This document shows positions 34,581-35,248 of a stretch of DNA of 64,000 nucleotides, in pieces; the first letter of the stretch is position 1, and each line of letters opens with the position of its first letter. Source of the DNA: a virus (taxonomy: Duplodnaviria; Heunggongvirae; Uroviricota; Caudoviricetes); the IMG/VR virus record IMGVR_UViG_3300028833_000137; one strand, written 5' to 3'. The position numbers and the translations under genes were made by a program. Below the pieces are notes generated by a model. That model made no database searches, had not been told where the DNA came from, and saw only the letters and a list, made by a program, of their open reading frames with translations.

Positions 34581-35194
34581 ATGTAGGGCAAATACCCTAT
34601 TTAATAAAACCGTTGCGACCTTCGTCGTACTTGTATTATCCTTCTAAACATATTCAGCCACGTTGAAGATGAAGGCTGAGCCAAAGGTAGCGACCCTTTA
34701 ACTTCTTCACCCTGTCTTTCGACTAGCAACGGGGAGATTGTCTACTCCCAAATTTCACTTAAACCATTCAGCAAATTCTTTAATAATAAATCAAATATGT
34801 ATTATTTGTTCTAATACCAAGAACTTGTTGTCACTTTAAGCTACTTTTACCGTAAACCTCACTTATAGCCTATTTCTAGGTTTCAACGACAATAGCATCT
34901 TGTTGGTCTTTCCTAGGTTTGATACAGTCACCGGCTAAACCCTAACTAGGATTCAGTCTACGCTTTTAACGCTTGACTTCTATTATGATGCCGTGAGGAA
35001 TCGTGCTTTTGTTAGCGGATAACCAAGCGCCTATCCTTAACATTCAGAGTTTCTCCTTATCGCTAATCATTACTGATTTTGCGGCCGCGATTTAGTAGTA
35101 TCCCGCCAAATCGTATGGCTGTTATTCAGATAGCCCAAGCAGAGTGGTTAGCTCTTCTTCACTTGGTTCAACCATTTTATTAAATAGAGTATCT

Positions 35195-35248
35195 ACTTCC
35201 TTTCCTCTTTACTATAATAATTATAGCATGATTTGAAGAAAAAGTCAA
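35195..35248 (-). promoter_or_regulatory. sigma70-type promoter (TTGACT-N17-TATAAT) driving a 620-nt ORF-free transcript and tRNA-Asn
   Basis: TTGACT at 35248-35243, 17-nt spacer, TATAAT at 35225-35220. Member of the 27-copy conserved promoter family. Confidence 0.6.

Follow-up and report, generated by a model that had tools for sequence, protein, structure and literature searches.

What is made from a stretch of phage DNA that lies between a promoter and a tRNA gene and holds no credible gene of its own? The question is raised by positions 34581-35200 of a stretch of 64,000 nucleotides (nt), hereafter the window, from the IMG/VR virus record IMGVR_UViG_3300028833_000137 (Caudoviricetes). The original prediction had placed a large structured non-coding RNA here and named ROOL and GOLLD among the candidates. 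Our answer is that the minus strand from 35190 to 34597 is very likely the ROOL RNA gene of a large low-G+C phage, set within an island of tRNA genes.

The ROOL match and its conservation

The identification starts from a search of the whole window against Rfam 15 with cmscan, in which the ROOL model RF03087 was matched at 34597-35190 (minus strand) with 328.8 bits and an expectation value (E) of 5.8e-75, far above the gathering score of 99.1 bits. The match is full length: the 594-nt RNA of the window covers model positions 1-574 of 574, and it is the single outstanding non-tRNA match in the window. The comparison with Rfam that the original prediction had proposed thus came out in favour of ROOL, and the other classes that it had listed fell away. 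Neither GOLLD, RNase P RNA, transfer-messenger RNA (tmRNA) nor group I/II introns reached threshold anywhere in the window, permissive scans of 31000-54500 included; GOLLD (RF01998) in particular found no match at the gathering score in the window, at E<=1 in 31000-54500 or at E<=10 in 40600-41430. ARAGORN called no tmRNA in the window, and one row for the tmRNA model was a 17-nt chance fragment (13 bits, 37443-37459) outside the ROOL region. For want of a model match, all of these classes were rejected for 34581-35200.

When the RF03087 consensus structure is projected on the window sequence, 124 of the 154 mapped pairs are standard, and the RNA appears as a divergent member of its family. 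It folds better than shuffled sequence (z = -4.87), none of 100 shuffles being as good. The G+C enrichment noted for the region is real but modest: the RNA stands at 0.392, the window as a whole at 0.355 and nearby coding DNA at 0.31-0.34. In the model a large loop separates the 5′ half from the 3′ half, and in the window this loop is an A/U-rich linker of 63 nt with 21% G+C (34773-34835, minus strand); it falls in alignment columns about 370-430, where the relatives show indels and little identity, and by its model position it corresponds to the disordered, interior-facing loop of the solved ROOL cages (PMC12286853).

Relatives were found with the PAPS-reductase-like protein of the window (39107-40051) as query, which gave 39 IMG/VR loci (numbered here with the prefix L). 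Conservation in related phages, which the original prediction had named as a check, is borne out: full-length ROOL is present in L003 (333.5 bits), L007 (317.7), L001 (307.6) and L006 (298.3) as well as in L123 (317.6), and a sixth contig, L004, holds a copy that is incomplete because it is cut by the contig end. The position is kept too, since ROOL lies 3.8-5.7 kb downstream of the PAPS-reductase-like gene in L001, L003, L006 and L007 and 3.9 kb downstream of it in the window. The five aligned ROOL sequences are 71-93% identical to the window, and the terminal helix that joins the 5′ and 3′ ends is 86% paired across the alignment.

For covariation, the Rfam structure was laid on a MAFFT alignment and compared with controls in which the structure was slid along the alignment and with 500 shuffles. 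Standard pairs filled 78.6% of the cells as against 34-48% in the slid controls, and 36 of the 154 pairs had changed on both sides as against 2-14; no shuffle (0 of 500) reached the observed covariation score. The structure was taken from the family model and not from the aligned sequences, which makes this a fairly independent test, with five related sequences being few. Judging from the alignment, the base pairing of the ROOL fold is maintained by compensatory substitutions in the relatives. These results also bear on one alternative, that the region is a mere transcribed spacer or leader of a tRNA operon whose hairpins are incidental. Its location between a promoter and a tRNA would suit such a spacer, and the other intergenic blocks of the island have unremarkable folding scores (z from -0.3 to -1.9); yet a spacer would account neither for an end-to-end ROOL match of 328.8 bits nor for the compensatory substitutions nor for the z-score of -4.87, and we give this alternative practically no chance.

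The claim that the region holds no open reading frame (ORF) above 20 codons does not stand literally, as ten ORFs of 20-42 amino acids overlap 34581-35200, two of them with 42 amino acids and a TTG or GTG start; the sole ATG-started one has 25 amino acids. It stands in the looser sense that none is credible as a gene, and we take them for chance ORFs. Could the region nevertheless make one or more small proteins, from a 17-codon AUG frame near the 5′ end or from the 42-codon TTG/GTG frames? Besides the overlapping ORFs themselves, a purine-rich stretch that precedes the RNA might speak for this, but it is too distant from the AUG to serve as a ribosome-binding site. Moreover, the AUG is missing in L007, indels among the relatives are not multiples of three, and the substitutions keep base pairs, not reading frames. 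With no frame conserved, a coding function of 34581-35200 was rejected, and its probability is as negligible as that of the spacer.

Promoter, transcript ends and the cage

The promoter that the original prediction had placed upstream is present and carries a TG extension in addition: it is of the sigma-70/sigma-A type, with TTGACT at 35248-35243, a 17-nt spacer that contains the TG, and TATAAT at 35225-35220, all on the minus strand. From promoter spacing only, transcription would start near 35213, so that a purine-rich 5′ leader of about 22 nt (AGUAAAGAGGAAAGGAAGUAGAU, 35191-35212, minus strand) would separate the start from the first ROOL model position. In the alignment, both promoter hexamers and the 22-nt leader are kept in L001, L003, L004, L006 and L007, and the proposed transcription from 35248-35220 would fit this conservation. 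The promoter is also one of a set. The pattern TTGAC-N18-TATAAT occurs at 27 sites in the window, all on the minus strand, where 0.1 would be expected by chance, and most of these sites share TTGACTTT...AAAAT...TG.TATAAT. This uniform set precedes many of the short genes and RNA genes of the window, and evidently represents the phage's promoters for the host polymerase.

At the other end, a short hairpin of 6 base pairs (bp; UAGGGUAUUUGCCCUA, 34584-34599, minus strand) overlaps the last 3 nt of the ROOL match; L001, L003 and L006 have it unchanged in spite of a different sequence downstream. No U-tract follows it, and a terminator scan predicted no minus-strand terminator between ROOL and tRNA-Asn(GUU). 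That tRNA gene (34504-34580, minus strand), at which the region indeed ends as predicted, starts 3 nt past the hairpin and 16 nt past the last ROOL model position. The gap between the ROOL end and tRNA-Asn is 74 nt in L006; L001 and L003 have an insert of about 650-730 nt there, apparently with a promoter and a ribosome-binding site of its own.

We propose that host RNA polymerase would start near 35213 and continue through ROOL into tRNA-Asn, the read-through being expected because no terminator is predicted between the two. RNase P would then cut at the 5′ end of tRNA-Asn, and trimming back to the 3′ hairpin would free a stable RNA of about 600-630 nt with the hairpin as its stable end. RNase P may contribute to the 3′ end of ROOL in this way wherever a tRNA abuts it.

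What such an RNA might become is suggested by ROOL RNAs studied elsewhere. The family occurs in phages and prophages near tRNA genes, and in one strain its abundance equals that of 16S rRNA (PMC5737381, PMC12286853, PMC12990946). Solved ROOL cages consist of RNA only; the env-120 and Enterococcus faecalis RNAs form octamers and the Ligilactobacillus salivarius RNA a hexamer, and the multimers persist at about 10 nM (PMC12286853, PMC12990946, PMC12412911). By homology, the RNA of the window would fold into the flat ROOL monomer, and six or eight copies of it would assemble, protein-free, into a closed dihedral cage, as in the members solved by cryo-electron microscopy (cryo-EM). The cage might be of help to the phage in the course of infection, by way of RNA or translation biology; this is our best guess and the weakest step, prompted by the 27 or more tRNA genes, the Y-RNA-like mimics and the RNA-repair genes that surround ROOL and by a promoter type shared with phage genes.

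One contact of the cage can be followed in the phage clade. In the env-120 structure, loop L8 pairs with junction J6/8 of a neighbouring chain and forms bridge B4, a contact that had been seen earlier as a covarying pseudoknot (PMC12286853). Placed according to the published positions (PMC12286853), L8 is the apical loop GCCGGUGAC of the long 5′-domain hairpin (34927-34935, minus strand), and its partner is the single-stranded junction AAGACCAAC (34902-34910, minus strand). In the window the two partners read CGGU/ACCA; L003 and L007 have UGGU/ACCA, L001 and L006 UGGC/GCCA. Within the clade, a U-to-C change in the loop is thus matched by an A-to-G change in the junction, and the contact is therefore under selection; such covariation would fit a contact within one molecule as well as one between molecules.

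Several observations weigh against our reading, in whole or in part, and they have to be set beside two further alternatives. Thirty of the 154 mapped model pairs are non-standard in the window RNA, mostly in helices 8-10 and 26, and the start site, read-through, processing sites and abundance of the transcript are all features that we infer. The insert of about 650-730 nt in L001 and L003 means that an RNase P cut at an adjoining tRNA is not a general route to the 3′ end. At B4 the window RNA has three Watson-Crick pairs (GGU/ACC) and a C·A mismatch, and the stem before L8 is short, with two wobble pairs among no more than 4 bp, so that the oligomer number (six or eight) is not predictable here. 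No conserved 4-nt palindrome stood out in the loops of the 3′ domain that would mark the symmetric kissing loop of 4 bp by which the two half-shells of the solved cages are joined (B6, or L15-L15″).

The first alternative is a decaying, non-functional ROOL relic, which the 30 non-standard pairs and the poor pairing of helices 8-10 and 26 in all five relatives might indicate. That no relative pairs these helices well speaks for a structure peculiar to the clade or a mismatch with the model, not for decay; the match leaves out no model position, conservation extends to the promoter and to both ends, and the compensatory changes show continuing selection. A relic is in our view very unlikely. The second alternative accepts a true ROOL RNA but has it act as a single molecule, or together with a protein or a tRNA, for instance as a scaffold or decoy, the cage not being its working form. 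No function is known for any ROOL, the E. faecalis RNA also occurs as monomer and tetramer in vitro (PMC12990946), B4 of the window is weakened to three pairs, and the island encodes several RNA-binding and RNA-repair proteins. Against this stand the persistence of multimers at about 10 nM, the conservation of the interface nucleotides across the family (PMC12286853) and the covariation of the B4 partners in the clade, though an intramolecular pseudoknot would covary too. We regard this alternative as improbable on balance, though clearly less so than a relic.

The tRNA island around ROOL

All large ORFs and all 27 tRNAs called by ARAGORN lie on the minus strand of the window, which encodes both topoisomerase II subunits, a DnaB-like helicase and a tail protein and is, on account of these genes, part of a large phage genome with about 35% G+C; its closest relatives have contigs of up to 169-181 kb. 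Searches of GenBank phages, in distant mode with the ROOL region and in near mode with 24 kb of the island, returned tRNA-sized matches or none, which indicates a phage without a deposited relative, and two motif-pattern scans of bacterial and archaeal genomes gave no true match to a host or prophage copy of ROOL or of the 400-nt RNA described below. Two further Rfam families exceed their thresholds in the window: a drum RNA (37599-37695, minus strand; 52.7 bits), which recurs in L003, L004, L006 and L063, and a DUF3800-XI RNA (53077-53124, minus strand; 54 bits), beside which no DUF3800 protein was found, the adjacent ORF (53125-53523) being without a Pfam match. In the more distant relative L014 there are two group I introns, at 3321-3632 and 13001-13292 (82.9 and 52.4 bits).

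The original prediction had also called attention to other ORF-free blocks as similar to the ROOL region. The likeness holds in that they are richer in G+C than coding DNA (0.43-0.45, the exception being 31404-31923 at 0.36) and in that several are conserved with compensatory changes; it does not extend to their identity, as they are not ROOL and match no Rfam family. With the unremarkable z-scores given above, folding energy alone lends these blocks no support, and comparative data are needed. On such data the blocks do not look like plain spacers, and at least two of them are, as far as alignments can tell, unclassified structured RNAs.

The first of these is an RNA of about 400 nt between tRNA-Ile(GAU) and tRNA-Ile(UAU) (50667-51065, minus strand). 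A two-motif pattern scan of IMG/VR located it on 10 contigs, always flanked by tRNAs (L001 534-958, L002 2180-2598, L006 2232-2642, L163, L164, L165, L166, L167 and L169 among them), and the copies are 57-85% identical, save L167, L169 and L170, which are 96-100% identical to one another. RNAalifold on 10 sequences predicts 74 pairs, 35 of which show compensatory change. For the first four sequences 93% of the cells pair as against 35-49% in slid controls, and 21 pairs have changed on both sides as against 1-4; these structures were derived from the same alignments on which they were tested, a bias in their favour. At least 12 helices are predicted; in one hairpin the stem covaries and the palindromic (U)CGCGA loop above it is invariant. 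Palindromic loops of this kind make symmetric kissing contacts in OLE and GOLLD. Full-text literature searches returned nothing for the conserved motifs, which, coverage being incomplete, is a weak sign of novelty.

The second lies in a mosaic block of 796 nt between tRNA-Met and tRNA-Glu (40623-41418, minus strand), which has no Rfam match even at E<=10 and whose modules are swapped, duplicated or absent among the relatives. The palindrome CAACCGGUUG is invariant in all six sequences, and the last module before tRNA-Glu is nearly invariant, being split in L006 (about 8850-9790) by some 900 nt with a GIY-YIG-like ORF. Within the block lies a pseudoknotted module of about 240 nt (40954-40715, minus strand), again with no Rfam family, in which a helix CCCAG/CUGGG is interleaved with a covarying helix that reads CUCGCG/CGCGCGG, CCACGCG/CGCGUGG or AACGAC/GUCGUU, and in which the motifs UAUCCC and AAGAGGGAAC are invariant. 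A covariance model of its 5′ core found 14 copies, frequently paired in tandem, on a total of 10 contigs; besides the window, they lie in L001 (2), L003 (2), L002, L004, L007, L063 (2), L066, L123 (2) and L159. Pairing fills 89% of the cells as against 29-52% in slid controls, and 17 of 21 pairs change on both sides as against 2-5, figures that are biased in its favour by an alignment fitted to the model. The search pattern TATCCC-N45-75-AAGAGGGAAC matched at least 120 loci in IMG/VR, of which 8 were true on rescoring with the covariance model (among the matches listed, L063, L066, L087, L122, L123, L134, L159 and, weakly, L106), and the pattern was rejected as too loose.

Two smaller blocks of no known class flank the ROOL unit. 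One, between tRNA-Leu(UAG) and the ROOL promoter (35253-35540, minus strand), has the same place relative to ROOL in four relatives (L001, L003, L004 and L006), with 79-89% identity and compensatory change in 7 of 65 predicted pairs. The other comes directly after tRNA-Asn (34266-34503, minus strand) and follows that tRNA in L003 and L006 too, with 89-90% identity by blastn and compensatory change in 4 of 64 predicted pairs in three sequences only; both blocks vary little among the relatives. Within 31404-31923, a tRNA-like element of about 115 nt (31585-31706, minus strand) was missed by ARAGORN; it has a D-arm of class II type, a UGCAAAU T-loop and a paired acceptor, and has a counterpart in L011 (2158-2264), a more distant relative. 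Close by is an isolated T-arm fragment (31516-31532).

Some tRNA genes of the island are interrupted. In the window, tRNA-Lys(UUU) (32025-32202, minus strand) holds an insert of about 103 nt and tRNA-Leu(UAA) (37432-37567, minus strand) one of 50 nt; their orthologues, in L001 and L003 respectively, are uninterrupted. At least ten more interrupted genes, with Ile(UAU), Glu(UUC), Lys and Leu anticodons, occur in related contigs (L001 965-1113 and 12039-12173; L005 2206-2342; L006 2643-2793, 13829-13959 and 19441-19583; L007 14160-14293; L066 1317-1433; L123 2741-2887; L159 6669-6785; L164 135-258). The inserts are 44-105 nt long, and the point of interruption is just past anticodon position 34 or 35. 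In every insert a 7-nt strand at the 5′ end pairs with another of 7 nt close to the 3′ end, and N-CCA at the end of the insert immediately precedes the 3′ exon; a T-arm-like hairpin is present in most of those read. The paired ends and the N-CCA terminus characterise the insert as an acceptor/T-arm minihelix. This architecture suggests that the inserts might be excised by the enzymes that process tRNA ends, and the exons resealed by a phage RNA ligase. Full-text literature searches, whose coverage was incomplete, gave no description of minihelix-type tRNA introns in phages, again a weak sign of novelty. ARAGORN also called tRNAs with a CUA anticodon ('Pyl') in L006 (2678-2754) and L007 (17043-17137); the latter may be an amber suppressor, and the former, which lies inside an interrupted tRNA-Ile gene, is probably an artefact.

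A different rearrangement is seen in three circularly permuted tRNA-like elements (32713-32812, 33976-34097 and 52433-52566, all minus strand). Each consists of a T-arm, a closed acceptor stem with ACCA or GCCA, and a D-arm, and its two ends form an outer stem; the second and third are paralogues. The YrlA model scores the first alone, at 25 bits, below its gathering score of 69; it does not detect the second. We call them YrlA-like, in the sense of Y-RNA and YrlA, by architecture only.

The same island holds what looks, from its domains, like an RNA-repair-type gene set, all on the minus strand: an RNA ligase (PF09414, 41632-42282), a cyclic-phosphate-processing receiver domain (PF20274, 42971-43324), a DUF2828/DUF7788 protein (43966-45498), which is RNA-binding according to PHROG 850, and a metallophosphatase (46440-47042). 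The DUF2828/DUF7788 protein has no sequence relative among solved structures, and a Ro60-like role for it would be conjectural.

ROOL among its neighbours and known systems

As read here, the RNA of the window is a new ROOL member in the typical setting of its family. The gene itself is ordinary, one more member in a tRNA island of a low-G+C phage, and would not surprise a specialist. Its value is that of a well-delimited example: promoter and 3′ hairpin are its own and conserved, a tRNA abuts it, and within a small clade of relatives the bridge contact covaries, so that it offers a clean construct with which to study expression and assembly in the ROOL family. The neighbourhood is more useful than ROOL itself, as its unclassified RNAs, Y-RNA-like mimics, RNA-repair genes and interrupted tRNAs are leads on the biology of large phage RNAs. 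It is conceivable, if somewhat short of an even chance, that ROOL is one of a battery of co-transcribed, tRNA-flanked structured RNAs in this phage group, an idea suggested by the two covarying unclassified RNAs, the two conserved blocks that flank ROOL and the tRNAs with U34 anticodons that are split by a minihelix. If so, the island would be a phage-encoded programme of RNA processing and RNA assembly, and the function of ROOL would become approachable through its partners.

Three known systems invite comparison. The species 1 and 2 RNAs of phage T4 are stable non-tRNA RNAs of about 120-140 nt in a phage tRNA operon, freed by the tRNA-processing machinery. The RNA of the window resembles them as a non-tRNA RNA within a phage tRNA operon, whereas they are shorter than ROOL and unrelated to it in sequence. 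GOLLD (RF01998) is likewise a large ornate RNA of phages and prophages beside tRNA genes and forms an RNA-only cage, but its sequence and fold differ from those of the window RNA. The third system is ROOL (RF03087) itself, from whose known members the window RNA departs in its sequence, which is new and comes from an uncultured phage, and in about one fifth of the model pairs, which are non-standard; its cage is predicted by homology. It agrees with the family in other features: the model is matched over its full length, the 594 nt compare with a family mean of 581 nt, the terminal helix is there, and so are the motifs GUGAAGA, GGGAUAC, AAUAGA, GUAGC, GCUGAAUG, GUGAAA, GUGGCUGAAUAU and CGAAGG, together with the complementarity of L8 and J6/8, the variable A/U-rich linker and the phage setting beside tRNA genes.

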